Positions 7,791-46,900 of a DNA stretch of 64,000 bases are shown here, piece by piece. The stretch lies in the NCBI GenBank assembly GCA_037968855.1, contig JBBKWH010000095.1:11223-75222 (forward strand), in the 5' to 3' direction. The notes beneath the pieces were generated by a model. That model worked only from the letters and a program-made list of their open reading frames with translations, did not search any database and had not been told where the DNA came from. A program made the translations under genes and the position numbers. Position 1 is the stretch's first letter, and every line of letters starts with the position of its first letter. This DNA is from Moraxellaceae bacterium (GTDB taxonomy: Bacteria; Pseudomonadota; Gammaproteobacteria; Pseudomonadales; Moraxellaceae).

Positions 7791-8858
7791 TTAGACGGTT
7801 TCGGCAGATGCGAGTGTCGGATAATCGGTATAGCCTTCTGGGCCAGCACCATAAAAGGTTGATGGATCAGGTGTATTCAACTCGGCATCTTGGGTAAAAC
7901 GGGTCACCAAGTCAGGGTTGGCAATATACGGAATGCCAAAAGCCACTGCATCGGCATCACCATGGGCAATGATCGCATTGGCACTGGCTTTATCGAATTT
8001 CTCATTGGCAATATACACCCCGCCAAAGATTTTTTTCAGTTGTGGGCCAAGGCTATCGTCGGCCTCGTGCTCACGTGCACAAATAAACGCGATCTGACGC
8101 TTGGCCAATTGCTCAGCCACATAACCAAAGGTCTCTAGCGGTGCGGCATCGCCCATGTCATGCGCATCGCGACGTGGCGCAAGGTGCATCCCAACCCGAC
8201 CAGCACCCCAAACGGCAATACATTCATCGGCAACCGCCAGCATTAAACGGGCGCGATTTTCGAGCGATCCACCGTATTGATCGGTGCGGGTATTGGTCGA
8301 TGTTTGCAAAAATTGATCGAGCAAATAACCATTGGCACCATGAATCTCAACCCCATCAAAGCCAGCTTTTTTGGCGTTTTCGGCACCCAAGCGATAGGCC
8401 GCAATCACCTCAGCGACTTCGCTGGTCTCTAGCGCACGCGGGGTGTCATAGGCTTTTTTAGGCCGAACCAAACTGACATGACCGTCTGGCTGAATGGCAC
8501 TTGGCGCAACCGGTTGTTGACCATCCAAATAAATCGGATCAGAAATACGGCCCACATGCCACAACTGCAACACCATACGACCACCGGCCTTGTGCACGGC
8601 ATCGGTGACCATGCACCAACCGGCCACTTGCTCATCAGACCAGATACCCGGTGTATCGGGATAACCCACACCCATTGGCATGACCGAGGTGGCTTCGCTA
8701 ATGATCAGACCGGCATCGGCGCGTTGCACATAGTATTCGGCCATCAACGCATTCGGTACCCGTCCGCTACTGGCACGACAGCGGGTCAACGGTGACATGA
8801 TGATTCGATTGGGCAAAGACAACTCGCCGACCTGTAACGGGCTAAATAAATCAGACAT
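7791..8858 (-). CDS. Old Yellow Enzyme family NADH:flavin oxidoreductase (NemA-like alkene reductase)
   Basis: MSDLFSPLQVGELSLPNRIIMSPLTRCRA... with a TIM-barrel OYE signature. ATG at 8858 preceded by GAGAGGAG. Confidence 0.85.
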   Translation of the reverse strand: MSDLFSPLQVGELSLPNRIIMSPLTRCRASSGRVPNALMAEYYVQRADAGLIISEATSVMPMGVGYPDTPGIWSDEQVAGWCMVTDAVHKAGGRMVLQLWHVGRISDPIYLDGQQPVAPSAIQPDGHVSLVRPKKAYDTPRALETSEVAEVIAAYRLGAENAKKAGFDGVEIHGANGYLLDQFLQTSTNTRTDQYGGSLENRARLMLAVADECIAVWGAGRVGMHLAPRRDAHDMGDAAPLETFGYVAEQLAKRQIAFICAREHEADDSLGPQLKKIFGGVYIANEKFDKASANAIIAHGDADAVAFGIPYIANPDLVTRFTQDAELNTPDPSTFYGAGPEGYTDYPTLASAETV

Positions 8859-8953
8859 GACTGCTCCTCTCACACAGCATCACTGCTGCATGTTGTGATC
8901 AATATGAAAAAGAACCTTGTGCATCGCACCATGACGAGGGCGATGGGTAACGG

Positions 8954-9292
8954 CTATAACTGCTGTTGCATTGCCTGCAAAAATGCCTGAATCACCGCAT
9001 CATTGCGCTTAAAAAAACTCCATTGGCCAACTTTTTTGCAGTCGAGCAAACCCGCACGCTGCAAAATGGCCAAGTGGGTCGAGATGGTTGATTGGGACAA
9101 CCCAGAACGTTGATCAATTTGGCCTGCACACACCCCCAGCTCTAGCGGTAATTCTTGCTCGGCAAAATGCGCTTGCGGATCTTTGAGCCAAGCCAAAATC
9201 TCTCGCCGAACCGGATGCGATAACGCTTTGATGATCAGATCAACATCCACATTAAAATCACTCGGCAGATCAGTATTCAGATCAGTGCTCAT
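8954..9292 (-). CDS. ArsR/SmtB-family transcriptional regulator
   Basis: About 110 aa with a winged-HTH core (LSQSTISTHLAILQRAGLL). The 5' end is uncertain (GTG at 9298, ATG at 9292). Confidence 0.6.
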   Translation of the reverse strand: MSTDLNTDLPSDFNVDVDLIIKALSHPVRREILAWLKDPQAHFAEQELPLELGVCAGQIDQRSGLSQSTISTHLAILQRAGLLDCKKVGQWSFFKRNDAVIQAFLQAMQQQL

Positions 9293-9430
9293 AGTCACCT
9301 ACAGACATCACGACTCGCACAGCGTATTCCTCTGTGAGTCATTGGTATATAGCCACTTACAAAAGTTTATATCTAGAACTATCGATATACGACAAAACAA
9401 AATAACCCCAGATAGACAGGCATAAAAAAA

Positions 9431-9454: not shown

Positions 9455-9614
9455 ACGTTCTACAGCAACAGTTTAGCAAAAACAAATACCCGCAACTTGC
9501 ATGTATCTCACCTCGCTAAGCGTCACACTACATCTCGAATATCGCAACTCAGCGCATCGCTGTCAAGCCTTGATCACCACTATTTTGATCAAGGTTTGAT
9601 CAAACGATACTTTT

Positions 9615-10710
9615 TTACAGACCCATCTTTAAGCTGGCTTCGATGAACTTGTCCAAATCACCATCAAGCACCGCGCCGGTATTGGAGGTTTCGACACTGG
9701 TGCGCAGGTCTTTAATCCGTGAATCATCCAATACATAGGAGCGAATCTGGCTGCCCCAACCAATGTCCGATTTGGTGGCTTCGAGCGCTTGCTGGGCCGC
9801 ACTACGCTTTTGTAGCTCTAGCTCATACAATTTGGCGCGTAATAATTTCCATGCACGGTCACGGTTGGCGTGTTGGCTGCGTTCGTTTTGGCAGGCCACC
9901 ACGGTATTGGTCGGGACGTGGGTCAAACGCACCGCAGAGTCGGTTTTGTTAATGTGCTGACCACCCGCACCGGAGGCGCGATAAGTATCGGTACGCACAT
10001 CCGCCGGATTGATATCGATGTCGATGTCATCGTCAACTTCGGGCGAGACAAACACCGATGAGAACGAGGTATGGCGACGGTTACCGCTATCAAACGGTGA
10101 CTTACGCACCAAACGATGCACGCCGGTTTCGGTACGCAACCAACCAAAGGCATACTCGCCTTCCACCCGAATGGTGGCACTTTTTAAGCCCGCGACTTCG
10201 CCGCTGGACTCTTCCATAATCTCGGCTTTAAAACCGTGGCGCTCAATCCAACGCAAGTACATGCGCATCAGCATCGAGGCCCAATCTTGCGCTTCTGTCC
10301 CGCCCGAACCGGCCTGAATATCAACAAAGCAGCAGTTTGGGTCCATTGGATTAGAGAACATACGGCGGAATTCGAGTTTGGCCATCTCGGCTTCGGACAC
10401 GTCTAATAGCGTGGTCACTTCGTCAAGCAGCTCTTCTTCGTCGGCTTCAACGGCAAGGTCTAACATCGCTTGCGCGTCTTCAAGTTGATCAGCCAAGGTG
10501 TCGAGCACGCCGACGCTGTTTTCTAGCTCGCCTTTTTCTTTGGCCATCGCTTGGGCGCGCGATTGGTCGTTCCAGATGTTTGGATCTTCCAATTCACGTA
10601 GGACTTCTTCCAAACGCTCTTTTTTCAGATCGTAGTTAAAGATACCCCCTGAGCGTGTTGCCACGCTCGCGAAGGTCTTTGAGTCGGTTCAGATACGGAT
10701 TAATTTCCAC
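9615..10710 (-). CDS. prfB: Peptide chain release factor 2 with programmed +1 ribosomal frameshift
   Basis: Frame 0 (start to 10636) encodes ...[24 protein letters not shown] then a stop. The +1 frame continues [12 protein letters not shown]... through SPF and GGQ motifs to 9615. Probable GTG start at 10710 (VEINPY...). Alignment to E. coli RF2 is unambiguous. Confidence 0.9.
10633..10651 (-). other. prfB frameshift cassette: internal SD AGGGGG, then TAT CTT TAA C
   Basis: Minus strand reads CTCAGGGGGTATCTTTAACTAC. The in-frame stop is TAA (plus 10636-10638), not TGA. Confidence 0.85.
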
Positions 10711-10897: not shown

Positions 10898-11890
10898 ATG
10901 GAACTTTTATTTTTGGGTACGTCTGCGGGCATTCCCACACGTCATCGCAATGTGACAGCATTGGCCCTCAAGCGACGCCAGTCTAAGGCATGGGTGTTGA
11001 TTGACTGTGGCGAAGGCACGCAGCATCAATTGCTGAATACCTCGCTGTCGCTCAAGCATTTAAGCGCGATTTGCATTACCCACGTGCATGGCGATCATTG
11101 CTTTGGCTTGTTTGGCGTATTGGCCAGTGCCGCGATGTATAAACGCAGCGAACCCTTGCTGATTATTTCCCCCGATGGCATCCAACAGATGGTTGAGCTG
11201 GTGATCGACAAAAGCGACACCCATCTGCCCTATCCATTGATCTTTCGCACACCGGATACGCTAGTGGCCTCGACCTGCCATGTCTTGCCGGTCGATGACT
11301 TTTGTATTCGCACGGTGGCTTTATCACATCGTGTGCCGTCGTATGCCTATGTGTTTAATGAGCGTTATACCAGCAGCGCGCTCAATGTCGATAAGCTTAA
11401 ACAAGATGATATCCCACAAGGCCCACTGTGGCAGCAGATTCAAAAAGGCGTTGATGTCGAGCTGAATGATGGACGACGGATTGTTGCCGAAGACTATCAA
11501 CTGCCTAAACCACCATCACGACGGGTGATTGTGGGTGGCGATAACGATACGCCCAAGCTGTTGGCAGAAGTTGCGCAAACCGCTCAAGTATTGGTTCACG
11601 AAGCCACCTACAGCCTAGAGATTTCGCAAAAAGTTGGCCCCTTCCCTCAACACACCGATGTCACAACCTTGGCTCAGTTTGCCGAGTCGGTGCATTTGCC
11701 CAACCTGATCATGACCCACTTTAGCGCGCGCTATGGTCACGAGCCTGAGCACGAACCGAGTGTGTATGACTTGTTAGCCGAAGCTCAGGCGTACTATCAG
11801 GGTCAGGTATTTTTAGCTGAAGATTTTGCGCAGTTTTATTTGGATGCAAACGGCGTGTTAAGCCAACAAAAAACCGCTATCGCTGGTTAG
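10898..11890 (+). CDS. rbn: Ribonuclease BN / RNase Z (metallo-beta-lactamase fold)
   Basis: MELLFLGTSAGIPTRHRNVTAL...DCGEGTQHQLL...HVHGDHCFG resembles E. coli RNase BN (ElaC). Confidence 0.85.
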   Translation: MELLFLGTSAGIPTRHRNVTALALKRRQSKAWVLIDCGEGTQHQLLNTSLSLKHLSAICITHVHGDHCFGLFGVLASAAMYKRSEPLLIISPDGIQQMVELVIDKSDTHLPYPLIFRTPDTLVASTCHVLPVDDFCIRTVALSHRVPSYAYVFNERYTSSALNVDKLKQDDIPQGPLWQQIQKGVDVELNDGRRIVAEDYQLPKPPSRRVIVGGDNDTPKLLAEVAQTAQVLVHEATYSLEISQKVGPFPQHTDVTTLAQFAESVHLPNLIMTHFSARYGHEPEHEPSVYDLLAEAQAYYQGQVFLAEDFAQFYLDANGVLSQQKTAIAG

Positions 11891-11927: not shown

Positions 11928-13409
11928 TTAGAAGCCGATGCTGGTCAGCAGGAGCACTGTGGCTTCGCTGGTCAGACTAAACTGATAACGGTCTGCGGTG
12001 AAGTTTTTCTCTTTGGCCTTCATCAACGGTGCCGTTGGGTCGGTCAAGTTATTGAGATAGTCGTTCATGTCCAAGCCAAGCTCTTGGATGTCGGCAGTGC
12101 GGCCCACATTTGAGGTCATGGTATGGCCATACAACCAACGACGGGTGGCAGGGATATAAAAGCCATAGTTTGGGACAGGCTGCATCTTGTCGGTAAAGCG
12201 ATCAATGTCGATTTTCCAACGCGCCAAGGTATTGGCTTTACGCACCTCAGGATCATTGCCTTGGGTGTCGGTAAAGAAACGGCGATACGAATAAGTACCA
12301 AACACATAGTCTTCTTGTGTGGTGGTCATTGACAGACGATCTTTTGGCCAGCGATTGGCAGTGGCAATATTCAGCGTGCCAAAGTTGCTGACATCCAGAC
12401 CCGTCAACTCAACCTTGTACCAGTCCAGCAAGCTACGGAAGCTCCCATCAGCCAATTGGCGCTTTTCGGTTAAACCCCAAATCGGCAAGGCAGTCCGGTG
12501 TAGTGGTGCTGAAGGGTTGGCGGCATCGCTGCCGTTTTGATCGGCAAAAAATGACGGGCCAGCATCGTTAAGCATAAAGCCTTGCTTGACCGGAAACAGC
12601 AAGCGAACGGCGTGATATAGCGCCGTTGCACCCACACCACCAGCACTTTGACCAGTAAACATCAGTTGTTGTGGGGCTTGTAGGTTGTTACGCACCCACG
12701 CGGCCACTTGGAGCGAGTTAATAATCCCATTGTGATAAATGGTCACAGGCGGCTTGATGCCAGCCGGATCGGTATACACATGCGTCGACAGCCCCGCATG
12801 TACATCACCCGTGCAATACGGCACAAACACTTTGTTCCAGCCCATGACCTTATTGTCTAGATCTGGCGAGCTGTCTTTCAGCAAGGCCGAATAAATCGGA
12901 ATGAGCGCCGATTTGTCCGTGTTGCTCAGGCCAGAGGTCGCAATCACAGCACTGGTGTCTTTATTACTACTGGCTTTGAGCACGTTGCCTAGGGTATTGC
13001 CGGAGGCCAATGTGCTAGAGCAACTGTCGTAATCCCAACATGCCCCACCGCCTTCCAAAAACACCATCAGGTTGCTGGTTGAGGCGCGACGATTAACCCA
13101 AAATGAAAATGGCGAACCATCGCCACACTTTGCACCAGTCGATGGATCGAGTTTGACCTCTTGCCATTGATCATAGGCTTTGGGATCAAAGCCATCGTCA
13201 AATCCGGCCGGATTGCTATTGATGGCCAACGGAATCAGTTTTTTATCTGCCGCAGTAATGGGGCGATCGGCTGTTTTTGGAAAACTTTGGTTAAGGCGGG
13301 TTTGAAACGCCGAATAGTCACCAACGTCGGCATGTGCCAAGGTTATGGCACTGGATGCAACACCAAGTGCCAGCATCCCTGCAAGTCGGGTGCGATGGAT
13401 AAGGGACAT
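11928..13409 (-). CDS. Secreted alpha/beta hydrolase of the pectinacetylesterase/Notum-like family (putative esterase)
   Basis: Signal peptide MSLIHRTRLAGMLALGVASSAITLAHA. Contains LEGGGACWDYDSC (the GGGxC block typical of PAE/Notum) and GQSAGG (nucleophile elbow). ATG preceded by GAGAGGA. Confidence 0.55.
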   Translation of the reverse strand: MSLIHRTRLAGMLALGVASSAITLAHADVGDYSAFQTRLNQSFPKTADRPITAADKKLIPLAINSNPAGFDDGFDPKAYDQWQEVKLDPSTGAKCGDGSPFSFWVNRRASTSNLMVFLEGGGACWDYDSCSSTLASGNTLGNVLKASSNKDTSAVIATSGLSNTDKSALIPIYSALLKDSSPDLDNKVMGWNKVFVPYCTGDVHAGLSTHVYTDPAGIKPPVTIYHNGIINSLQVAAWVRNNLQAPQQLMFTGQSAGGVGATALYHAVRLLFPVKQGFMLNDAGPSFFADQNGSDAANPSAPLHRTALPIWGLTEKRQLADGSFRSLLDWYKVELTGLDVSNFGTLNIATANRWPKDRLSMTTTQEDYVFGTYSYRRFFTDTQGNDPEVRKANTLARWKIDIDRFTDKMQPVPNYGFYIPATRRWLYGHTMTSNVGRTADIQELGLDMNDYLNNLTDPTAPLMKAKEKNFTADRYQFSLTSEATVLLLTSIGF

Positions 13410-13514
13410 GAGATCCTCTCAATATTGTGATTATGGATTACGGGCAAACCTGTGTACCCTAGGCGCAGGGCCAACGCGCCAAAACAACAATACCCAAACC
13501 AAGGAGTGTGCGAG

Positions 13515-14174
13515 ATGCACAAACAGATCGGACTGGCCGCTCTTTTCATTCTGATCTTGGCGATGATTGCCATCGGTCTGAATCAGCGTTCTGAAGCTAA
13601 CAAAGCTGCGTTATTGCAACAAACAGATTCCGGCCAACTGCGCTCCGTTGATCGGAATGAACAACAAACTGCCAAGGACGACACACTTTTTAGCCGCGCC
13701 GCACCTGCCAATGATGCCAATCCCTTACGCACCGATGACACCACGCATGACCGGCTGATTCGCCACATGAAGCAACTGTATCTGCAAGCCAAGCTGCATC
13801 AGGGTTTAGATCTAGATGTGGTCAAGGCCAGCCTAGCCGATCTCGACAGTCTTGAAAGCAAAGGCATTATGCTGCCTGCCGAAGCCAAAGAGCATCGCCA
13901 ATGGTTAGCTGAACAACAGCCCCAACTGGCCAGCACGATTGCCCAGACTCAAGCGCGCTTTGATCAACAAGCCACAACCAAGGCCCAGCGTGATCAACAA
14001 CAACGCCAACAAGCACTCAGCAATGACAGTGCATTTAAACAATACAAAGTAGAAGAAAACCGGATTGTGACCGAGATCTTGCAACAGTACCCGCAAGCCT
14101 CAGTGCAACGGGATGCATTGATTGAGCAACGTTTGAATGCCTTGCATCGGCAGATTTATGGCGCAGGCAGTTAA
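13515..14174 (+). CDS. Hypothetical membrane-anchored, Gln-rich periplasmic protein
   Basis: ATG at 13515 with AAGGAG upstream. One N-terminal TM helix, then a helical Q/A/E-rich sequence. Stop overlaps recJ stop region. Confidence 0.45.
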   Translation: MHKQIGLAALFILILAMIAIGLNQRSEANKAALLQQTDSGQLRSVDRNEQQTAKDDTLFSRAAPANDANPLRTDDTTHDRLIRHMKQLYLQAKLHQGLDLDVVKASLADLDSLESKGIMLPAEAKEHRQWLAEQQPQLASTIAQTQARFDQQATTKAQRDQQQRQQALSNDSAFKQYKVEENRIVTEILQQYPQASVQRDALIEQRLNALHRQIYGAGS

Positions 14175-15901
14175 GCCAGCGGTTCGACATACTGCACCAT
14201 CAACTGCAAGCGCCGCTCACCACGAAAGTGATTAATGTCCAGTTGATAGGCCAGATACACCGTGCTGGCCGACTCAGGCCACGCCGGATCGGCATTAAAC
14301 CAAATGGCCTCGACCCATGCGCCGCCATCGGTAGGACGTAACAGCCATTTGATGTGTTTGCCTTGTAGCCAGCGCTGCTCAAGCACCGCAAACTGCCCCT
14401 CAAATACTGGCGCAGCAAAGCCCTGTCCCCATGGCCCACCCGTCAGCAACTGTTGAGCAAAACCCAGCGAGAGTTGGTCGGCAGCCAATACGCCATCGGT
14501 CAACAATACCGGCGCAAACAAGCTGTCGTCATGCTCGGCAATCACTGCTTCAAATGCAGCAATAAAGGTTGGTAACTGATCGGCAGCAAGTGTTAAGCCA
14601 GCCGCCATAGCATGACCACCAAAATGACTAATCACCCCTTGGTGCTGCTCGGCCACCCGTTCAATGGCATCGCGAATATGCACACCCGCAATCGAACGGG
14701 CCGAGCCTTTTAGCCATTGTGCTGACTCGTCGCTAGGTGCAAACACGATACTAGGCCGATGAAATTGCTCTTTAAGCCGTCCGGCCACAATGCCAATCAC
14801 CCCTTGGTGCCAGCTTGGTTCGTACAACACAATTGCATGTGGCAACTGACCATCGGCAAACAACACCCGATCCGACAACAAGGCCAAGGCATCGCTTTTC
14901 ATCTCGGCTTCAACATGACGGCGCTCACGATTGAGCTGATCGAGTTGCTCCGCCAACGGTCTGGCGCTGTCCATATCTGCTGCCAGCAAGCACTCAATGC
15001 CAATCCGCATATTGTCCATACGACCTGCGGCATTGATCCGAGGCCCCAGCACAAAGCCCAAATCCTGCGCGTTTAACTGATCTGGCTTACGTCCAGCAAT
15101 CTCTAGCAAGGCCAGCAATCCGGCACGGCATTGACCCGCTCGAATACGCTGTACGCCATGCGCCACCAAAATGCGGTTGTTGGCGTCTAAAGGCGCAACA
15201 TCGGCCACCGTACCAAGCGCCACCAAATCCAAATAATCGGTCAGTTTGGCCGTCGCCTTACCCAAGCCACGCCGATGGGTCGCCAGCGCAGCCAACAGAT
15301 AAAACGCCACACCGACCCCCGCCAAAGCTTTACTGGCAAAGGCACAGTCGGGTTGATTGGGATTGACCACTGCCAAGGCAGGCGGAACAGCTTTGCTGGT
15401 TAAGTGATGATCGGTAATGATCACCTCAACGCCCGCTGCATGGGCTGCCGCAACGCCTTGATGACTCGAAATACCGTTATCGACCGTGACAATCAGGTCT
15501 GGCTGATAGTCGGATAACGCCAAGCCAACAATCTCTGGCGTTAAGCCATAACCATACTTAAAACGATCTGGCACCAAAAAATCCACCAGCGCGCCCATCC
15601 GCCGCAAGGCCAACACCATTAACGCGGTACTGGTCGCGCCATCAGCATCAAAGTCACCGACAATCAAAATGCGCTGTTGCTGATCAATGGCCTGATCCAA
15701 GCGCGCAAGCGCTGTGCTGAGTCCTTTAAGGTCCTGTGCGGGCAATAACCGACTCAGCTTAAGCTGTAGTTCGTCCGGATGTTGTACGCCACGCGCCGCA
15801 TACAGGCGGGCTAATGCCAGCGGCAAACTGGACAATGTGGCGGGAATGGCGGTCTGTAAGCGCGGTTGCAGCGCTAAAGTCTGAGAAATAGTCATGACCA
15901 T
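14171..15901 (-). CDS. recJ: Single-stranded-DNA-specific exonuclease RecJ
   Basis: DHH/DHHA1 architecture (ILIVGDFDADGATSTAL..., ...DHH...), 576 aa, with a C-terminal OB-like domain. Confidence 0.9.
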   Translation of the reverse strand: MVMTISQTLALQPRLQTAIPATLSSLPLALARLYAARGVQHPDELQLKLSRLLPAQDLKGLSTALARLDQAIDQQQRILIVGDFDADGATSTALMVLALRRMGALVDFLVPDRFKYGYGLTPEIVGLALSDYQPDLIVTVDNGISSHQGVAAAHAAGVEVIITDHHLTSKAVPPALAVVNPNQPDCAFASKALAGVGVAFYLLAALATHRRGLGKATAKLTDYLDLVALGTVADVAPLDANNRILVAHGVQRIRAGQCRAGLLALLEIAGRKPDQLNAQDLGFVLGPRINAAGRMDNMRIGIECLLAADMDSARPLAEQLDQLNRERRHVEAEMKSDALALLSDRVLFADGQLPHAIVLYEPSWHQGVIGIVAGRLKEQFHRPSIVFAPSDESAQWLKGSARSIAGVHIRDAIERVAEQHQGVISHFGGHAMAAGLTLAADQLPTFIAAFEAVIAEHDDSLFAPVLLTDGVLAADQLSLGFAQQLLTGGPWGQGFAAPVFEGQFAVLEQRWLQGKHIKWLLRPTDGGAWVEAIWFNADPAWPESASTVYLAYQLDINHFRGERRLQLMVQYVEPLA

Positions 15902-32407: not shown

Positions 32408-34561
32408 ATGGAATGGCTCATTATGGCAGCAGTGGTTGTGGTGGTGGTTATCACCGTGATCATTGGTATTTTATTATTATTTAAGATTTTTTATCGCAAG
32501 ATCAACCAAGGCCAAGCCTTAATCAAGAACGATCTGTCCGCCACGCCCAAGGTGTATTTTACCGGTGCAATGATTTTGCCGGTCATTCACCGTGCCGAAG
32601 TGATGGACATCTCGGTGATTACCCTAGAGATCAACCGGACTGGCAAAGAAGGTCTGATCTGCCGCGACAACTTGCGTGCCGACATTACCGTGGCGTTTTA
32701 TCTACGGGTCAATGAAACCGCCGAAGACGTGTTACGCGTCGCCAAGTCGGTCGGTGTCAACCGCGCCTCAGATCGCCAAGCGGTCAACGAACTGTTTAAT
32801 GCCAAGTTTAGTGAAGCGCTGAAAACCGTCGGTAAAAAACTCGACTTTATGCAGTTGTTTGAAGAACGGCAGAATTTTCGTGATGCGATTGTCGCCACCA
32901 TTGGCGAAGACTTAAACGGTTATGTCCTCGAAGATGTGGCGATTGATTATCTTGAGCAAACGCCAAAAAGCGCGCTGGATGTCAACAACATCTTGGACGC
33001 CGAAGGCATCCGCCGCATTACTGAAATCACCGCCAAACACAATGTCGAAACCAACCGACTAGAGCGTGATCAAGAGCTAGAGATTCAACGCAAAAACGTC
33101 TCGGCACGCGAAGCCGGTCTAGAGCTAGAGCGCAGCCAAGCCGATGCCGAAGCGCGCCAAGCCCGCGAAGTGCAAACCTTAAAAATGCGCGAGCAGTCGG
33201 CCACCGCACAAGTGCAGCAAGAAGAGCGCTCCAAGATCGAAGCCTCACGGATCAAAACCGATGAAGAACTGGCGATTGGTGAAGAGAACAAAAATCGCCA
33301 AATCGAACTGGCCGAAAAAGCCCGTCAACGTGCCATTCAAATTGAAGATGTGCGGATTCAACAGGCACGCGAGCTAGAAGACGTCAATCGTCAACGCGCG
33401 GTCGAAGTCGAACGCATCAGCATGCAAAAAGAGCTGGAGCAAGAACGCAAAGAAATTGCCGAGATCACTAGTCAGCGCATTGCAGTCGAACGGCATGTGG
33501 CTGAAGAAGAAGAAAACATCAAAGACGTGCGCAACCGCTCCGAAGCCGAACGCAAAAAAGTGGTCTCACTGACCGCCGCCAGCGCCGAAGCCGAAGAAGA
33601 CAAACTCAAACGAGTCAAAGCCGCTGAAGCCACCTTTGAAGCCTCCAAACTTGAGGCCGATGAAGTGCTCATCCGCGCCCAAGCTGAGTTTGACGCTGCC
33701 GACAAAAAAGCTGCATCGGAAGAAAAACAAGCCCGTGGTCGCCAAGCACTGGCCGCCGCCGATGGTCTGGCCGCCGCCCAAGTGATGGAAGCACGTAGCC
33801 AAGCCGAAAAAGTCGCCGGACTGACCCAAGCTGAAGTCAAACTGGCGATGGCCAAAGCCCAAGAAGAAACCGGCATGGCCGATGTACGCGTGCTGGATCA
33901 ACGCCTACAAATCGAAGCCGATGGCGAAGAAAAACAAGGCCACGCCAAAGCCATGGCGCGGCAAGAAATGGCTAAAGCCGAGCAAATGGCCGGTCTGGCT
34001 GAAGCTGATGTGATGGAAAAACGTCTGACCGCGCAAGCCGAAGGCGAACGCCGCATGGGTGAAGCCAAAGCCGTGGCACGCGAAGCGATGGCAAAAGCCG
34101 ACCAACAAGCCGGTCTGGCCGAAGCCGACGTGATGGAAAAACGCATGACCGCGCAAGCCGAAGGTGAGCGCAAACTGGGCGAATCCAAAGCCGCTGCGAT
34201 TGAGGCCATCTCGATTGCCGATGCCAACGGCCTGCTCGCCAAGCTAAAAACCTACGAAAATCTGTCCAGCGACGCCCGTTCGTTTGAAGAGTTCCGCATG
34301 GGTCTGGCCCTGCATGAAAAAGAAATCTTGGCCCATATCGACGCCCAGCGCACCGTGGCACAAGAGAACGCCAAAATCATGGCTGCCGCTATGCAAAACG
34401 CCAAGTTTGAACTGATTGGCGGCGACAGTGATGTGTTTGAAAAACTCACCACAGGCTTGGGTTATGGCAAAGCGGTGGAAGGCATCTTGTCTAAATCGCC
34501 ACAACTGCAAGCAGTACTAGCGGGCATTGCCAACCGCGTGCATGACCATAAAAGCGACTAA
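32408..34561 (+). CDS. Flotillin-like SPFH/band-7 protein (YqiK-like), N-terminal TM anchor, long E/A/Q/R-rich coiled coil
   Basis: 717 aa. TM AAVVVVVVITVIIGILLLF, an SPFH core (VITLEINRTGKEGLICRDNLRADITVAFYLRV), then flotillin-type EA-rich repeats. Confidence 0.8.
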   Translation: MEWLIMAAVVVVVVITVIIGILLLFKIFYRKINQGQALIKNDLSATPKVYFTGAMILPVIHRAEVMDISVITLEINRTGKEGLICRDNLRADITVAFYLRVNETAEDVLRVAKSVGVNRASDRQAVNELFNAKFSEALKTVGKKLDFMQLFEERQNFRDAIVATIGEDLNGYVLEDVAIDYLEQTPKSALDVNNILDAEGIRRITEITAKHNVETNRLERDQELEIQRKNVSAREAGLELERSQADAEARQAREVQTLKMREQSATAQVQQEERSKIEASRIKTDEELAIGEENKNRQIELAEKARQRAIQIEDVRIQQARELEDVNRQRAVEVERISMQKELEQERKEIAEITSQRIAVERHVAEEEENIKDVRNRSEAERKKVVSLTAASAEAEEDKLKRVKAAEATFEASKLEADEVLIRAQAEFDAADKKAASEEKQARGRQALAAADGLAAAQVMEARSQAEKVAGLTQAEVKLAMAKAQEETGMADVRVLDQRLQIEADGEEKQGHAKAMARQEMAKAEQMAGLAEADVMEKRLTAQAEGERRMGEAKAVAREAMAKADQQAGLAEADVMEKRMTAQAEGERKLGESKAAAIEAISIADANGLLAKLKTYENLSSDARSFEEFRMGLALHEKEILAHIDAQRTVAQENAKIMAAAMQNAKFELIGGDSDVFEKLTTGLGYGKAVEGILSKSPQLQAVLAGIANRVHDHKSD
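33870..34229 (+). repeat. Three tandem about-120-nt (40-aa) in-frame repeats inside the flotillin gene
   Basis: 33990-34109 versus 34110-34229 are roughly 85% identical at nucleotide level (GLAEADVMEKRLTAQAEGERRMGEAKAVAREAMAKADQQA / GLAEADVMEKRMTAQAEGERKLGESKAAAIEAISIADANG). A more diverged copy lies upstream. Confidence 0.7.
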
Positions 34562-34649
34562 CGGGTCTGATTGACTCATTAGGCATCGGTCATTGCATGA
34601 TGGCCGATGCCCTACGCCACCTTATTCGCGTGACCACATTAAAAAATCA

Positions 34650-37600
34650 ATGGAATCTCACAACATGTCCGACACGATCCGCCCAAACGACCCGCAGCAA
34701 GACCAGAGCCATCTGGAACAACTCGTGCGTGAAGGCTCATCGTTTGAGACCATTTTGCGCCGCCTGCGCGATCAAGGCGAACACCTGCGTCAAGGCATTC
34801 GCCAACTCAATACTGAACGAACTGCCGTGTTTGGCAGCGTCAATATGGCGATCTTGGGTCGGGCGCGTGTGCGAACCGAACAAAACGCCATTGCACGCGA
34901 TGTGATCCAACTGGGTCAGCAACTGTTGTTTGGTTTTAACCTGCAATTGGGCCTGCGCAAGACCTTAAGCGTCGATGACGTGTTTGTGCTGTATCACTTG
35001 GACGAACAAGACGATCAGTTTGAACTGACTGCGATCAACAGCGCCGGTACATTTTTGGCCGATGGCGGATTTTTGCGTGATTTTAATGAGTTGCAGCAGT
35101 ATTACAGCCAAGCCTTTTTAAGCCAACTGATCCGTATGGACGGCAAGCTGTTGGCGGTTTTTCAGATTGGCGAAAAGGTCACTGATATTCGGGTGTTTCG
35201 TTGGGAGTTGTACCCCAACGGCAGCGTCAACCGCTATATCGACAACCGTGGCGAGCGCGATCTTAAATTTCCAGATCGCTTTGGCTTTAAATGGCAAGTC
35301 GCCGGACGGGATCGCCAAGTGCAAGGCCGCCAGCCGCACCTGAATATTCTGGACACGATTTTTGTTGATAACTTACGCGGTGACATCACCGTCAAAATCG
35401 AAAACAACACCAGCACGGGACAGGGCATTTTTTCTGATCCGGTCGAGATCGACTCGCAGTCTTTAGACGATGCCAGCTTTGAATACGCAGATCTGGGTAG
35501 CATGATTGTGCTGCGCATCTTGCCGTTTACCGAGACCACATGGCGTTATTACATCTATAACCGCGATACCCAAACGGTCTTGCGTGAGGATCAACTGGCT
35601 GGCTCCATCGTGCCGCTACCGGAGAATCACGGGCTGATTTTTCCGGCGGGGTTTTATCTATCAACCGGTGAACTAAAAACCTACGATATCCCCGAGCAAG
35701 ACTTTCGCTTTGTACGCAGCATTCGCGCACCGAATGGCGAAGACGTGCTGTTTGCTTTTTTTGCCCAAAAAACCGGCCACGTCTTGCTGTATCGCTACAA
35801 CTTAATCAGCAAGCAAACCGACACGCCGATGATCGGTCATGGCTATGCCCTACACGACAGTGGCCGCTTGGCGATTTTTCATGCCGAAGACGAACCAACC
35901 CAAGTGCATCCGCTGCAACTGTGGCATACGCCGTTTATGGCCGACCGTGTGCACGCCGAACAAGCCGATCAAAACCAACATCCACTAGGCAAAATTGGCA
36001 ACCCAGAATTAGTACGTGGCATTGCCGAACTCAACACCATCATCAAACTAATCGAGCAGCCAACCGGCAGCGCCCTGCATTTTCATCGCTTGATCAAAAC
36101 CATTGACCGCACGCTGGATCAATGTTTTTGGCTGGATGATTTGGCCGAGATCAGCTTGCAGCCGCAATTGATCGAGGCACGGCAAAGCGCCGAGTTGATG
36201 ATTGACGAATACGACAAAGTCCAAGCGATTCGCCAGCAATCCAATCAAGCGATTGATAGCGCCGCCACCACCCAAGCGCAACTGCTACGCGACCTCAAGC
36301 CCAACCAGTGGAAAAGCCCAGATGCCTTTGTCAGTTATCTAAAAATCCTGCGCGACCATCACGGTCAGTTGATGACGCTTAAAGATCGCCGCTATATCGC
36401 CCTTGAACGCTTACAGCAGTTAGAACAAGCGCTGCAACAGGCGCAAGATGATCTGACGATCAAAACCTTTGACTTCTTAGCCAGCGAGCAAGCCCTAGGC
36501 GGCTATCGCAACACCTTGGCCGAACTGTCCGAACAGGTCCGCCAAGCCGAGCGCCGCGAGCAACTGGCCACGCTGGTGGAACGCTACCGCGAGCTAACCC
36601 AAGGCTTGGACATGATCCAAAGCATGTTGGCCTCCATGAGCGGCGATAACACCACCCAACAAACCCAAATTGCCGACAACATCTCCAGCATTTACGCCAG
36701 TATCAACCAACAACGCGCGCACGCCGAAGTGCGCTTGCGCGAGCAAGGCAGCGCCGAAGCACGGGCGCAATTTGCCGCGCGGATGCGCCTGTATGAGCAA
36801 AGTCTGGCCAATGGCATTAATGCGCTGACAGGGCCAGAAGACTGCGACCCGCTGCTGACCCGAATGCTGGATCAACTACAAGAACTCGAAAGCCAGTTTG
36901 GCGAATTTGACGACTTTTTGGCCCTGATCTTGGCCGAGCGCGAACGCAGTCAAGAGAGCATTGAAGCACGCCGCCAACAACTGCAAGAACAACGTCAGCG
37001 CCGCATCAACACCTTAAGCGATGCCAGCACGCGTATTTTACAAAACATCCGCCAGCGTACCGAACGCTTTGGGCAATTGGCCGAACTGCATGCGTTTTTT
37101 GCCAGCGATGCGATGGTACAAAAAGTGCGGCAAATGGCCGAGCAACTGCGCCAGATGGGCGCAAGCCTCGAAGCCGATAGCGCCGCCAGCCAACTGCGCG
37201 CCGCGCAAGATGGCGCGATGCGTAGCGTGCGTGACCGCGCTGATATCTTTGAAGATGGCGGACAGGTGATCAAGCTTGGCCCGCGCCATCGCTTTAGTGT
37301 TAATCAACAGCAACTTGATCTAACTCTGTTGGTGCGTGACGGCCAACCGATGCTGCACCTGACCGGCACCCAGTTTTATGAACCGCTGCACGATGCCAGA
37401 CTGACCCCGCTGCAAGCCTATTGGGACATCAACCTACCGTCCGAGTCGCCACAGGTCTATCGGGCCGAATACTTGGCCTATCTGGTCATGCAACAACTGC
37501 TCATACAACAACAGGGCAAACCACAGCAAACGCCCATCAATGTGGCCGACCTTGCCGCGCTAACGGATTATATTCGCCAGTTTGCCTCGCCACGCTACCA

Positions 37601-40169
37601 AGAAGGCTACGAAAAAGGCATCCACGATGCCGATGCCGCGCTGATCGTCAGCACCTTATGGCCCGCGCAACAACAAGCCGGACTGCTGCGCTACTCACCG
37701 ACTGCCCGCGCCATTGCCATGTTGTATTGGAGCGACCTTAACCAGCCTGACCAGACCAAGACAGACAGCGCCAAGACAAACAGCACCGAGCAAGCCAGCA
37801 GTCTATTGGCCCGTTGTCGCTCGGCTGGCACGCTCAAGACTGTGCTGGGCAGTGATCATTTGCAACGCAAGCTGAGCGCGCAACTATTGCCTACACTGCA
37901 CAGCTTTTGCAGTAGTTTTGAATTGCCTGCCAGCAGCAGTCAGATCAGTCAAGCCGCCGATTATTTGGTGCAACAACTGGCGAATGGCGACAGTGCAAAC
38001 AGCAATCTCAGCAGCGCAAAGCCCAGCTTTGTGATCAGCCAATACGCCAGCGATTTGGTCAGTCAGTTTAAGCAACAACTGAGCAGCCACCAACGCGAAT
38101 TCGAACAGGCACTAAGTGCCGCCAAAGGCCAACACGGTCTACGCTGGCAGATCACTGCCGAATGGCTACGCGCTTTTGCCGAGCAGCTAGATCAACCGGC
38201 TGCTCTACACTATTTGCCTGAAGCCATCGCTCTAATTAATCAAGACAGTACCCTGCTCACGCAAACCCAACATGTGAAACTCAGCTTTGAGATTAGCGGG
38301 TTGATCGGCCAGCATCCGCGCATTCACAGCCAGACCTTAAGTCTGCAATTAGACGAATTTGCCGAGCGATTGGATCATCATCAACACGTGGTGATGGCCG
38401 GTTGGCAGCAACTTCAACAGGTGCGCCAAGTGGTACTGCAAGAACAACGCGAACGCCTGCGCCTAGACGAATACACGCCCAAGCCGTTGTCCTCTTTTGT
38501 GCGCAATAAATTGATTTCCGAAAGCTATCTGCCGCTGATTGGGGACAATCTCGCCAAGCAAATTGGCACCGTGGGCGAAAACCGCCGTACCGATCTGATG
38601 GGTTTGCTGATGATGATCTCGCCACCGGGTTATGGCAAAACCACCTTGATGGAATACGTCGCCAGCCGTCTGGGCTTGATCTTTATGAAGATCAATTGCC
38701 CAAGCTTAGGCCACGAGGTCACCTCATTAGACCCTGAACGCGCACCGCACTCCACGGCCCGCGCCGAGTTAATCAAGCTTAACCTTGCCTTAGAAATGGG
38801 CAATAACGTGATGCTGTATTTGGATGATATCCAACACACCAACCCAGAGTTTTTGCAAAAGTTTATCTCGTTGTGTGATGGCAGCCGCCGCATTGAGGGC
38901 ATCTGGCAAGGCCGCACCCAGACCTATGATTTGCGCGGTAAGCGCTTTTGTGTGGCAATGGCGGGCAACCCGTACACCGAAAGCGGCGAGGTGTTTAAGA
39001 TTCCAGACATGTTGGCCAACCGTGCCGACATCTACAACTTGGGCGATGTACTGAGCGGCATGGAAGACGTGTTTGCCCTGTCGTATATCGAAAACGCGAT
39101 TAGCTCTAGCCCGATCCTTGCGCCACTAGCGACCCGTGGTATGGAAGACTTTTATCGCTTTGCCGATCTAGCGCGTGGCCGCGAGGTCGCCAGTACCGAC
39201 TTTGAACACGACTACAGCGCCGCCGAACGACAAGACATTGTCAACACCCTGCAAAACCTCTACACCGTGCGCGATACCGTGCTTAAGGTCAATCAAGCCT
39301 ATATCGCCTCAAGCGCACAGGCCGATGCCTACCGCACCGAGCCAAATTTTCGCTTGCAAGGCAGTTACCGCAACATGAACCGCTTGGCCGAAAAAATCTC
39401 GCCCATCATGACTGCCGCCGAGCTACAACGCTTGGTCGATGATCATTACGTCGGCGAAGCACAATTGCTAACCCAAGGCGCAGAAGAAAACCTACTCAAA
39501 CTCAAAGAAATGCGCGGCACTTTAAACCCAGATGAAGCCCAACGCTGGGCCGAGATCAAACTGGAATATCAACGCCGTCAGCAAGCCGGTGGTGATCAAG
39601 ACACCGGCGTTAAAGTGGTCCGGCAATTGGGCTTTATTGCCGAGGGGCTGAACAATGGCTTAAGCCACCTCAAGCAAGCAGCCAGCGAACAACAGGTTCA
39701 TCATCGTCAACTGTACGAACATGGGATCAGCCAACACAGCGCCAGCCTTGAACAAGCCAAGCAGCAACAGAGCCATCTGCATGACCTGATCAGCCAATTG
39801 ATCAACCGACTGGGCGAGCAATTGCATCAACTGGATCTTGCACCCAACATTGCCGTCAACGTGGCCGAGCCAGTGGGCATGCAAGAAGCCATGCGCCAAC
39901 TCACCGCAGTGCTGAATCAAAGCCTACTGGCCCTACAACCGACCGAACAACAACTTAGCCAAGCCAGCAGCATCAACAACAACGCCAAACAAACCCAACA
40001 AGCCGTCGAGGATGTCAAAACCTCGCTCCAGCAACTGGGCCAACAAATCAGCGAACTGAAGCTCAGCAGTGTTGGCGTGCAGCAACACGCACCTGCATCA
40101 TCGCCAACCTACATTGAATATCCTGATGGGCCACGGCCACCGCCTTTGCCACCTAAGGTAACGGAATAG
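34650..40169 (+). CDS. Giant (about 1840 aa) coiled-coil protein with a single dynein/MoxR-type (AAA_5-like) ATPase cassette and Pro-rich C-terminus; function unknown
   Basis: Continuous ORF. Walker A ISPPGYGKTT (about 38624-38650), Walker B LYLDDIQH (about 38811), sensor MAGNPY, and an Arg in PDMLANRADIY. Long Q/E/R-rich heptad-like stretches flank the cassette. The N-terminal 480 aa is not coiled-coil. Tail ...YPDGPRPPPLPPKVTE. The start is uncertain (TTG 34593, ATG 34650 or 34665; no strong SD). Confidence 0.7.
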   Translation: MESHNMSDTIRPNDPQQDQSHLEQLVREGSSFETILRRLRDQGEHLRQGIRQLNTERTAVFGSVNMAILGRARVRTEQNAIARDVIQLGQQLLFGFNLQLGLRKTLSVDDVFVLYHLDEQDDQFELTAINSAGTFLADGGFLRDFNELQQYYSQAFLSQLIRMDGKLLAVFQIGEKVTDIRVFRWELYPNGSVNRYIDNRGERDLKFPDRFGFKWQVAGRDRQVQGRQPHLNILDTIFVDNLRGDITVKIENNTSTGQGIFSDPVEIDSQSLDDASFEYADLGSMIVLRILPFTETTWRYYIYNRDTQTVLREDQLAGSIVPLPENHGLIFPAGFYLSTGELKTYDIPEQDFRFVRSIRAPNGEDVLFAFFAQKTGHVLLYRYNLISKQTDTPMIGHGYALHDSGRLAIFHAEDEPTQVHPLQLWHTPFMADRVHAEQADQNQHPLGKIGNPELVRGIAELNTIIKLIEQPTGSALHFHRLIKTIDRTLDQCFWLDDLAEISLQPQLIEARQSAELMIDEYDKVQAIRQQSNQAIDSAATTQAQLLRDLKPNQWKSPDAFVSYLKILRDHHGQLMTLKDRRYIALERLQQLEQALQQAQDDLTIKTFDFLASEQALGGYRNTLAELSEQVRQAERREQLATLVERYRELTQGLDMIQSMLASMSGDNTTQQTQIADNISSIYASINQQRAHAEVRLREQGSAEARAQFAARMRLYEQSLANGINALTGPEDCDPLLTRMLDQLQELESQFGEFDDFLALILAERERSQESIEARRQQLQEQRQRRINTLSDASTRILQNIRQRTERFGQLAELHAFFASDAMVQKVRQMAEQLRQMGASLEADSAASQLRAAQDGAMRSVRDRADIFEDGGQVIKLGPRHRFSVNQQQLDLTLLVRDGQPMLHLTGTQFYEPLHDARLTPLQAYWDINLPSESPQVYRAEYLAYLVMQQLLIQQQGKPQQTPINVADLAALTDYIRQFASPRYQEGYEKGIHDADAALIVSTLWPAQQQAGLLRYSPTARAIAMLYWSDLNQPDQTKTDSAKTNSTEQASSLLARCRSAGTLKTVLGSDHLQRKLSAQLLPTLHSFCSSFELPASSSQISQAADYLVQQLANGDSANSNLSSAKPSFVISQYASDLVSQFKQQLSSHQREFEQALSAAKGQHGLRWQITAEWLRAFAEQLDQPAALHYLPEAIALINQDSTLLTQTQHVKLSFEISGLIGQHPRIHSQTLSLQLDEFAERLDHHQHVVMAGWQQLQQVRQVVLQEQRERLRLDEYTPKPLSSFVRNKLISESYLPLIGDNLAKQIGTVGENRRTDLMGLLMMISPPGYGKTTLMEYVASRLGLIFMKINCPSLGHEVTSLDPERAPHSTARAELIKLNLALEMGNNVMLYLDDIQHTNPEFLQKFISLCDGSRRIEGIWQGRTQTYDLRGKRFCVAMAGNPYTESGEVFKIPDMLANRADIYNLGDVLSGMEDVFALSYIENAISSSPILAPLATRGMEDFYRFADLARGREVASTDFEHDYSAAERQDIVNTLQNLYTVRDTVLKVNQAYIASSAQADAYRTEPNFRLQGSYRNMNRLAEKISPIMTAAELQRLVDDHYVGEAQLLTQGAEENLLKLKEMRGTLNPDEAQRWAEIKLEYQRRQQAGGDQDTGVKVVRQLGFIAEGLNNGLSHLKQAASEQQVHHRQLYEHGISQHSASLEQAKQQQSHLHDLISQLINRLGEQLHQLDLAPNIAVNVAEPVGMQEAMRQLTAVLNQSLLALQPTEQQLSQASSINNNAKQTQQAVEDVKTSLQQLGQQISELKLSSVGVQQHAPASSPTYIEYPDGPRPPPLPPKVTE

Positions 40170-43925: not shown

Positions 43926-46900
43926 ATGAATGGCTGGTGGATCACCTCGGCATTGGCGCTGTATATCGGTGTGCTGTTTGCCTGTGCATTTTTGGGCGAG
44001 CGACAGTCGGCACGCTTTAGCGCACGCGGGCGGCAGTGGTTATATGCGCTGACCTTGGGCGTGTATTGCACCTCGTGGACGTTTTATGGCGCGGTCGGTT
44101 CGGCGGTGCGTGATGGCTGGGGGTTTTTGCCGATTTATCTGGGGCCATTGCTGTTTTTGTGGTGGGGCAAAGACATCTGGCAACGCTTGGTACAGATTCG
44201 TGCGCGCCAATCCATTAGCTCGATTGCCGACTTTATTGCGGCACGTTATGGCAAGTCGCCGGTGTTAGCCTCAATGGTCACGGTCTGCGCGGTGGTCGGC
44301 ATCCTGCCCTATCTAGCCTTACAGTTACGCGCGGTGGATTCGAGTGTCACGGTGCTACTGGGCGATGCCCTCACACAGGCCCATAGCGACTGGTCAAGCT
44401 TGGGTGTACTGATTTTGACCGCAGGTTTGGCCGGTCTGGCGATGCTGTTTGGCACACGGCAAATGTTGGCCAACGAACACCATGGCGGCCTCATGCTGGC
44501 CGTAGCGCTTGAATCTGCGGTGAAGCTAATCGCTTTGTTGGCGATTGGCGTTTATGCCCTGTGGCAATTGCTGGATGTCAATGCAGCCGCCTTTGCCCCT
44601 GTGCAGCAGTTGGCGATGCCGGATCAGTTGCCTAGTGGCTTTTGGGCGCAGACCTTACTGGCAGCCTTGGCAATGATTTGTTTGCCACGCCAGTTTCATG
44701 TTGGGGTAGTCGAGTGCCCTGATCAAGCGGTTGTACCGGCAGCACGCAAGCTGTTTGCGCTGTATTTGCTGTTGACAGTGTTGGCGATTTTGCCGATTGC
44801 AGCATGGGCGCTGACCCGCAGCCAAGCCTTAGCCGATCCCGACATGGCGGTATTGTTATTACCGTTATTGCATGATCAAACTGCCCTTGCCTTACTGGCC
44901 TTTTTGGGTGGTTTTTCGGCGTCGACTGGCATGATGCTGGTGGCCAGCGTTGCGCTGTCGATCATGATCAGCAACGACTTAATTTTGCCTGCGCTATGGC
45001 GTATCGGCTGGCTGAAACAAGATGATTCTCGCTTGGCGCAAGTGGTGCGTTGGATTCGCCGTGTGGCGCTGCTTGGCTTGATGTTATTGGGTTATTTGAT
45101 GTACCGCTTATTTGATGGTACAGCGCAATTGGCTTCCATCGGCTTGTTGGCGTTTGCCGCGGTGGCCCAGTTTGCACCGGCCTTGATTGGCGGCTTGTAT
45201 TGGCGTGGTGGCAGCAAAATGGGCGTGATGCTGGGGCTATCAGCAGGGTTTGTGTTGTGGGGATTTTGCCTGTTGCTGCCTGCCCTCTTACACTTGGGCA
45301 TTGGCCCTGCCGATTGGCAAAGTGACGGGATGTTTGGCTTGGGCTTGCTACGGCCCGAAGCGCTATTTGGCAGTCATGGCCTTGATCCGTTGACTCATGG
45401 CGTGCTGTGGTCATTATCGGTCAATGTGTTGCTGTATGTGGGTGGCTCGATTCAATGGCGCGCATCAGTGCCCGAACAGATGCAAGCGCTGCCCTTTTTA
45501 CAACCCGAAGACCAACTTGATGCGCCTTATCTGTCCAAACAACATGGCCCCAGTCGTTTTCGCCTGAATGATTTGTATGCCTTGGTCGAACGGATCAATG
45601 GCCCTGCGGTGGCCGAACGACGCTTTGCCGAATTTGCTGCCCAACAGCAAGAAGTGCTCAATCTGCATCAAGCTGCCGACAGCCGTTGGTGGCGCATGAC
45701 CGAGCAATGTTTGGCTGGTGCGATTGGTACGGCATCGGCGCGGCGTTTGCTCAGTACCGCATTACATGATCAAGGCATTGGCGTGGCGGAAGTCGCAGGC
45801 TTGCTGGATCATGCCTCGCAGTGGCAGCGTTTTAATCAGGCACTGCTGGCCACCATGATGGATCACATGAGCCAAGGTGTGAGCGTGGTGGATGCCGATT
45901 TACGCATGGTGGCGTGGAATCGGCGTTATTTAGAACTGTTTGATTATCCTTTAGATTTGGTCTATGTCGGCTGCCCAGTCGCCGATTTGATCCGCTTTAA
46001 TGCCGAGCGCGGCGAATGCGGCACAGGCACGGTGCAAGCGCATATCGACAAACGTCTATATTGGATGCGTCTGGGCAATCCGCACACCTTTGAACGGGTG
46101 CGCAAAGATGGCCGCGTGATTGAGATGCGCGGCCAACCAATCAAAGGCGGTGGCTTTGTCACCACCTTTGCCGACATTAGCGATTTTCGTCAGACCGAAA
46201 GTCTACTGGCGCAACGGGTGACTGAGCGCACCGAACAACTCGAAACCGCATTACTCGAACAAGCCACTGCCCGACAACTGGCCGACACCGCCAATCAATC
46301 CAAAAGCCGTTTTGTGGCCGCAGCCAGTCATGATCTATTGCAACCGATGCATGCGGCACGGTTATTTGCCGCCAGTCTTGAGCATGCCGACCTCAATGCA
46401 GACGCACGCGACTTGGTGCAGCAACTGGATCGCTCCTTACATGGTGCCGAGAGCATTTTGTCTTCGTTATTGGACATTGCACGATTGGATACTGGCGCAC
46501 TCCAACCCCATCTAGAACCCGTGGCACTTGGCCCATTGCTGGCCGATCTTGAGTCGCAATACGCCCCCACCGCGCAACAGCGCCAACTGACCTTAAACGT
46601 CCATTCCAGCAATATCTGGGTGTTAAGCGATGCGCAATGGCTACGGCGGATGCTACAAAACTTGCTCAGTAACGCCTTACGCTATACCGCCTCTGGTCGG
46701 GTGGTCATGGGTACACGACGCGGCACTGATGGCAGCATTCGGATTGGGGTATGGGATACGGGTATGGGCATTGCGCCCGAACAACAGCAACAGATTTTTG
46801 ATGAATTTCAACGTGGTCAACATGCGTCGCCGTGGGGTGAACAAGGCTTAGGCTTGGGGCTTGCCATTACCTTACGGATGGCCAAACGGCTGGCGCATTC

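Follow-up and report, generated by a model that had tools for sequence, protein, structure and literature searches.

The prfB frameshift site of several uncultured Moraxellaceae lineages carries UAA in place of the canonical UGA

The +1 frameshift cassette of prfB has been shown experimentally to shift in E. coli. Its UGA is the textbook argument for RF2-specific feedback, which makes sites with UAA, where RF1 can also terminate, natural experiments. In a survey of 87 species, CUU UGA C was "always conserved" (Baranov et al. 2002, in the quotation given by PMC5289835). A later survey based on RefSeq genomes (Prince, Lin & Feaga, mBio 2025, PMC12421855) gives CTTTGA for 98.6% and CTTTAA for 1.4% of 8,164 motif-bearing genomes, and TAG for none; the first-pass annotation of our locus, which took UAA variants to be rare at best, was correct on this point. 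In the part of the survey's table that was examined, Guyparkeria hydrothermalis (GCF_023555375.1), entered as "frameshift TAA", is the sole TAA row, and the rows for Psychrobacter, Moraxella, Acinetobacter and Alkanindiges are not TAA. The survey reads TAA as poorly tolerated, scattered and not broadly fixed in clades, argues that TAA sites still respond to RF2, since much UAA decoding outside E. coli K-12 falls to this factor, and states, citing Weiss et al. 1987, that changes to the E. coli cassette, stop identity included, lower frameshift efficiency. An E. coli RF2 with Ala246 shares UAA decoding with RF1, which is then dispensable (PMC5373646), and in this species RF2 outnumbers RF1 3-9 fold (PMC10798248). 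Bacteria have lost the prfB frameshift repeatedly (PMC13245932). The UAA type of site is therefore already described; what is new here is the uncultured Moraxellaceae lineages in which we find it, and our case mainly adds taxa.

The site lies in a 64,000-nt stretch of DNA from a Moraxellaceae bacterium (hereafter the window), where frame 0 of prfB reads GTG GAA ATT AAT ... CTC AGG GGG TAT CTT TAA C (Table 1). There is a single copy of the 16-nt cassette in the window, while shuffles predict 0.00. A short ORF0 (~25 codons) provides the RF2 N-terminus and the RF2 body follows in the +1 frame, the purine-rich Shine-Dalgarno (SD)-like element is placed 3 nt before CUU and 6 nt before the stop, and the slippery CUU U runs into a stop with a +4 C at 10641-10635. 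The stop itself is UAA and not the RF2-specific UGA, which puts the site outside the classical cassette definition but within the documented TAA subclass. In the window, and in four related contigs described below (L081-L084), CTTTAA stands in an otherwise canonical motif, as in the TAA type of Prince et al. 2025. The sole departure from the textbook site is a G-to-A transition turning UGA into UAA and Asp26 into Asn: when TGA-C becomes TAA-C, GAC becomes AAC, and hence Asn25 stands opposite E. coli Asp26. Scanning of the window for Rfam families (at gathering cut-offs) and for tRNAs returned none, so that no RNA family is relevant, and a promoter/terminator scan around prfB did no better than shuffles.

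Table 1. Coordinates of the prfB frameshift cassette and of neighbouring genes in the window
Feature	Position	Strand	Basis or remark
GTG start codon, prfB ORF0	10708..10710	-	conservation boundary exactly there in 14 Moraxellaceae loci
prfB ORF0, 24 codons, GTG to slippery CTT	10639..10710	-	frame-0 reading
Internal SD-like AGGGGG, 3 nt 5' of CTT	10645..10650	-	read directly
Spacer TAT between AGGGGG and CTT	10642..10644	-	read directly
Slippery CTT T	10638..10641 (CTT 10639..10641)	-	sequence; putative re-pairing by analogy with E. coli prfB
In-frame stop TAA (UAA); canonical TGA	10636..10638	-	sequence and independent assemblies L081-L084
+4 C, weak termination context	10635	-	read directly
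First +1-frame codon AAC (Asn25)	10635..10637	-	AA of TAA plus C
prfB ORF1, +1 frame, 340 codons plus TAA stop (9615..9617)	9615..10637	-	
prfB ORF1 domain content: PCRF, RF-1, SPF, GGQ	9615..10637	-	profiles and alignment
recJ	14171-15901	-	upstream of prfB
240-aa ORF	13452-14174		between recJ and prfB
Pectinacetylesterase (PAE)-family gene	11928-13409		between recJ and prfB
MBL-fold gene, Anti-Pycsar Apyc1/Lactamase_B matches	10898-11890	+	between recJ and prfB
ArsR-type HTH regulator gene	8954-9298		downstream of prfB
Oxidored_FMN gene, Old Yellow Enzyme-type oxidoreductase	7791-8873		downstream of prfB

Joining ORF0 and ORF1 yields a protein of 364 aa that scores 504.4 bits with the TIGR00020 prfB model (cut-off 370), and 275-277 bits with RF1 models, under their cut-offs of 400-423. 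This protein aligns colinearly over its full length with RF2 of E. coli (1gqe, E = 7.7e-168): its KSPFDS and SGAGGQH fall on the corresponding motifs, and an Ala occupies the position equivalent to E. coli 246. The first-pass annotation had described a classic RF2 +1 cassette with an internal SD, which the directly read elements and frames and the TIGR00020 score bear out; the sequence is present as it described, but on the other strand, since prfB lies on the minus strand. The ORF0 product aligns to residues 3-25 of E. coli RF2, and ORF0 evolves as a frame-0 coding sequence: summed over all pairs of 14 loci, there are 403, 174 and 838 differences at the first, second and third codon position, respectively. 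Because ORF0 is coding in frame 0, and the +1 frame carries a stop within it, a +1 shift is needed for full-length RF2. Values of dN/dS for prfB against relatives are 0.02-0.07, about 0.04, and the gene appears to be functional and under purifying selection, not a pseudogene. The NCBI pipeline already annotates the TAA-type homologues P0003 and P0005 as full-length 364-aa RF2.

The start codon GTG, which the first-pass annotation had also pointed out, is confirmed, but it is not peculiar to this gene. GTG GAA ATT AAY is kept in all 14 Moraxellaceae loci examined, Acinetobacter included, with a variable codon before it (ACC, ATC, CAC, AAC, CTC or CGC) and a GAG-containing purine patch ~10-12 nt upstream, and NCBI-annotated homologues are 364 aa long and begin MEINPY. 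By comparison, prfB of Enterobacterales and Vibrio starts with ATG TTT GAA (MFEINP). As judged from these alignments, the GTG start is a family-wide trait.

The same +1-frame protein (P0001) recurs in different samples, on at least 22 contigs in all. Four of these contigs (L081-L084) were read as DNA and all have CTT TAA C, which upholds the first-pass reading of UAA instead of UGA. They belong to the same species as the window: their prfB has a nucleotide identity of 0.967 (3.3% different) to the window gene, with dS 0.17 and dN 0, and a synonymous CTG/TTG polymorphism sets them apart from it a few codons upstream of the stop. TAA is also found in lineages L001, L091-L097, L101, L102, L105, L106 and L108. 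It is fixed in the window species as sampled and common to two other related lineages.

How widespread is this stop among relatives? A scan of species genomes for a conserved RF2 peptide returned 5 Moraxellaceae among the 80 loci listed, and a strict regular expression for the cassette had no match in 40 of these 80, from remote taxa. The closest species-level genome among the matches listed, an uncultured Moraxellaceae MAG (L001) with 89% RF2 identity, has CTT TAA C, and four Acinetobacter species, at 83-84% RF2 identity, have CTT TGA C. The clade itself was sampled from a protein database by taking the best 120 of about 8,000 matches, 115 of which, together with the window, gave 116 usable sequences. 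Stop identity was deduced from the residue after GGIF/RGYL, N meaning AAC and thus TAA, and D meaning GAC and thus TGA; for clusters without DNA, N is read as TAA-C, which held in every checked case. DNA look-ups gave TAA in P0001, P0022 and P0017, and TGA in P0009, P0004 and P0048. By this measure, 33 of the 116 sequences have TAA and 83 have TGA, among the best 120 of about 8,000 matches and counted as protein-database clusters, which are not equivalent to independent species and over-represent abundant organisms. The 32 clusters with N represent 91 contigs. All 116 sequences keep GGIF/RGYL followed by N or D, and none has an in-frame (fused) prfB. In relatives the SD-like element is AGGGGG or CGGGGG, with unchanged spacing, and this element, the 3-nt spacer, CTT and the +4 C are perfectly conserved in all TAA lineages; no compensating change was seen when the cassettes of TAA and TGA lineages were compared.

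Of the 11 stretches that a metagenome-wide scan for GGGGGTAYCTTTARCTAYGA found, 8 are genuine TAA-type prfB genes. Five of these belong to the present Moraxellaceae neighbourhood; the other three, L100, L103 and L107, stem from unrelated lineages, with 67-69% RF2 identity and CTT TAA C in otherwise canonical cassettes. The match L099 was rejected because it is not prfB. When a cassette with TAG, which is RF1-specific, was sought in metagenomes, there were 2 pattern matches, neither of them prfB.

The relationships of these genes were examined in bootstrapped neighbour-joining (NJ) trees of a single protein, the RF2 body. The window species (TAA) pairs with a TGA-bearing sister, P0009, at 92.3% RF2 identity and 97% bootstrap. 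A large multi-species group, with 99% bootstrap and 91.4-100% identity, comprises 31 clusters, 29 with TAA and 2 with TGA, and its TAA-bearing genes differ from one another by dS 0.5-0.9. A third TAA lineage, P0022/L001, has no firm placement. The three are roughly as distant from each other as from Alkanindiges, Aquirhabdus and several further groups, all of them TGA-bearing (~88-92%). Monophyly of all TAA lineages, seen in a first NJ tree, received 0% bootstrap with corrected distances, and a single origin is therefore not claimed: the single-protein tree fits one TAA origin with reversions or three origins, and does not discriminate between them. Parsimony counts 4-5 TAA/TGA changes in this neighbourhood. 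The two TGA tips of the mostly-TAA group, L089 and L090, are not mutual nearest relatives; L090 has 91-92% nucleotide identity to TAA-bearing L101 and L105 and only 88% to L089.

With TAA in 33 of 116 sequences, spread over three Moraxellaceae lineages, and in 29 of the 31 clusters that make up one group, the variant is a lineage trait, not a one-time oddity. The first-pass annotation had taken the UAA for an oddity, to be seen as a lineage trait should it prove common in the clade; it is common there, and the oddity is withdrawn. The alignment of shift sites across related taxa that it had suggested gave TAA in the three lineages and TGA in all Alkanindiges, Aquirhabdus and Acinetobacter relatives examined. 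TAA lasts over species-level divergence with occasional flips, and the data suggest that stop identity toggled more than once within the mostly-TAA group. The published picture is thereby modestly refined: in this Moraxellaceae neighbourhood, TAA is kept over the distances that separate species and yet alternates with TGA among near relatives. Sister pairs that differ in the stop, such as the window species and P0009, are suited to tests of the RF2 set-point or of the RF1/RF2 balance.

The reading that we favour, with a probability of about 0.82, is that the window prfB is functional and expressed via the canonical +1 programmed frameshift, with an inherited TAA of the rare class. By analogy with E. 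coli, AGGGGG, three bases upstream of CTT, would pair with the anti-SD of 16S rRNA, the P-site tRNA-Leu would slip from CUU to UUU, and decoding would pick up at AAC (Asn) to yield full-length RF2. Since all the mechanistic elements of the E. coli site are intact, the same tRNA-Leu slip is expected. Release-factor termination at UAA would compete with the shift, so that a high termination capacity would lower RF2 synthesis. Since RF1 as well as RF2 reads UAA, as the first-pass annotation rightly stated, the circuit would sense combined UAA-termination activity (RF1 + RF2) and not RF2 alone, and the feedback gain for RF2 would be scaled by the RF2 share of UAA termination. RF2 probably contributes a large share of this signal because the window RF2 is of the efficient Ala246 type. 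Autoregulation is probably retained but less RF2-specific, and the weakening of RF2-specific feedback that had been predicted for the site is probably only a partial loss, as an RF2 of the Ala246 type shares UAA decoding. Given the drop in efficiency upon a stop change in E. coli, as stated in PMC12421855, the set-point in the window organism may differ. The anatomy of the site, the RF2 identity, the frame-0 coding of ORF0, the purifying selection and the phylogenetic distribution are read from the sequences; that the site shifts, how efficiently it does so and the change in what the feedback senses are inferred, the slip from work on E. coli. Stop usage in 48 mechanically chosen window ORFs is 35 TAA (73%), 8 TGA (17%) and 5 TAG; since 5 of the 48 end in TAG, RF1 is presumably present in the organism. 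A phmmer search for RF1 (prfA) within the window found none.

More tentatively, and with the odds against it, UAA could be a stable inherited recoding stop of prfB across several uncultured Moraxellaceae species, with occasional returns to UGA. If so, this would run contrary to the published view that TAA is poorly tolerated and never fixed in clades; the RF2 circuit would be a sensor of total UAA-termination capacity (RF1 + RF2), and these species would offer a natural system for how much RF2 specificity autoregulation needs. A stronger version, which we consider unlikely, is that the circuit has been adaptively re-tuned into such a sensor and that TAA is actively maintained. Re-tuning would suit genomes that use UAA far more than the other stop codons, and the stop usage in the 48 window ORFs, with TAA so far ahead of TGA, points the same way. 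Likewise, TAA is held by nearly all clusters of one group despite the synonymous divergence of its members, and most of the genuine TAA cassettes in metagenomes come from this neighbourhood. However, the Acinetobacter, Alkanindiges and Aquirhabdus relatives examined all keep TGA, there is no co-varying change in the cassette, and TGA occurs in the window sister P0009 as well as in two tips that sit within the TAA group, which means that the stop state flips both ways.

Those 4-5 flips could also be taken as a sign of drift, in which a slightly deleterious or neutral TAA marks a cassette decaying toward lost autoregulation. The published survey reads TAA as poorly tolerated and scattered (PMC12421855), and the recurrent loss of the prfB frameshift in bacteria (PMC13245932) would fit such decay. 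Against this, the SD-like sequence, the 3-nt spacer, CTT and the +4 C show no decay across TAA lineages, fused prfB is absent from the 116 sequences, and TAA persists over near-saturated synonymous divergence. We therefore regard decay as improbable, well behind the inherited functional cassette set out above.

It is very improbable that there is no frameshift at all, with the +1 ORF starting internally at GTG 10664 and ORF0 being a leader peptide or untranslated. ORF lists and metagenome gene callers do give a 349-aa ORF from this GTG, but its 9 extra residues, MATRSGGIF, are the conserved cassette read in the +1 frame, and the residues before GGIF vary freely in relatives (MAKRF, MVQRF, MGRRS and others). 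ORF0, in contrast, aligns residue for residue to the E. coli RF2 N-terminus and evolves as frame-0 coding sequence, and the same cassette is established to shift in E. coli. The 349-aa ORF is an artefact that arises when the cassette is read in the +1 frame. In annotation, detection of the prfB frameshift must allow both CTTTAA and a GTG start. Finally, there is next to no chance that TAA is a sequencing or assembly error (the true base being G) or that prfB is a pseudogene: although the site is one base away from canonical, the identical base in at least 22 contigs of independent samples and in several divergent lineages refutes a base-call error, and a dN/dS of about 0.04 speaks against a pseudogene.

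The surroundings of the gene also differ from those in E. coli, where the gene order is recJ-prfB-lysS. In both loci recJ is upstream of prfB, but in the window three genes are interposed and lysS is replaced, an arrangement that is the same in the window species, P0009 and P0022 (Table 1). The heptamer TGATCAA has 61 copies in the window vs. 11.6 +/- 3.3 expected from dinucleotide-preserving shuffles. Three copies lie within 35 nt (9570-9603), just 3' of the prfB stop, and this cluster adjoins a match to a sigma-70-like promoter on the minus strand (9566-9538), which lies upstream of the ArsR-type gene. Codon usage, a GATC-linked signal or an operator could account for the heptamer. Elsewhere in the window, an ORF of 1,858 aa at 32408-40169 (+) has DUF3686 ("ATPase involved in DNA repair"), DUF7902 and AAA domains; it directly follows a 717-aa ORF for which there was no Pfam match at 1e-5, and the two may form a two-gene module. 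A 1,150-aa hybrid sensor kinase at 43926-47378 (+), with PAS_7, HisKA, HATPase_c and receiver domains, appears ordinary.

Among known systems, the window locus is close to E. coli prfB itself, with which it shares the gene, the position at the 25th/26th codon, AGGGGG, the 3-nt spacer TAT, CTT T and the +4 C. It differs in the stop (UAA, whereas E. coli has the RF2-specific UGA), in the first +1 codon (AAC for Asn, whereas E. coli has GAC for Asp), in a GTG-Glu start and 364 aa where E. coli has ATG-Phe-Glu and 365 aa, and in having no lysS downstream. Relatives in Acinetobacter, Alkanindiges and Aquirhabdus have an RF2 that is 81-88% identical, with the same GTG start, cassette and downstream continuation, but with CTT TGA C (Asp) where the window has CTT TAA C (Asn). 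The frameshift-free prfB genes of Actinobacteriota and some Pseudomonas represent another relaxation of strictly RF2-specific autoregulation, yet those genes have neither the stop nor the SD-like element nor the slippery site any more, whereas in the window all but the stop identity is intact. The locus is of the same kind as the TAA motif of Prince et al. 2025, which is likewise CTTTAA within an otherwise canonical motif. TAA is described there as not broadly fixed, whereas here it is found in three uncultured Moraxellaceae lineages and in 29 of 31 clusters of one group, which is thus a local counter-example that mildly qualifies the published view that TAA is not fixed in clades.
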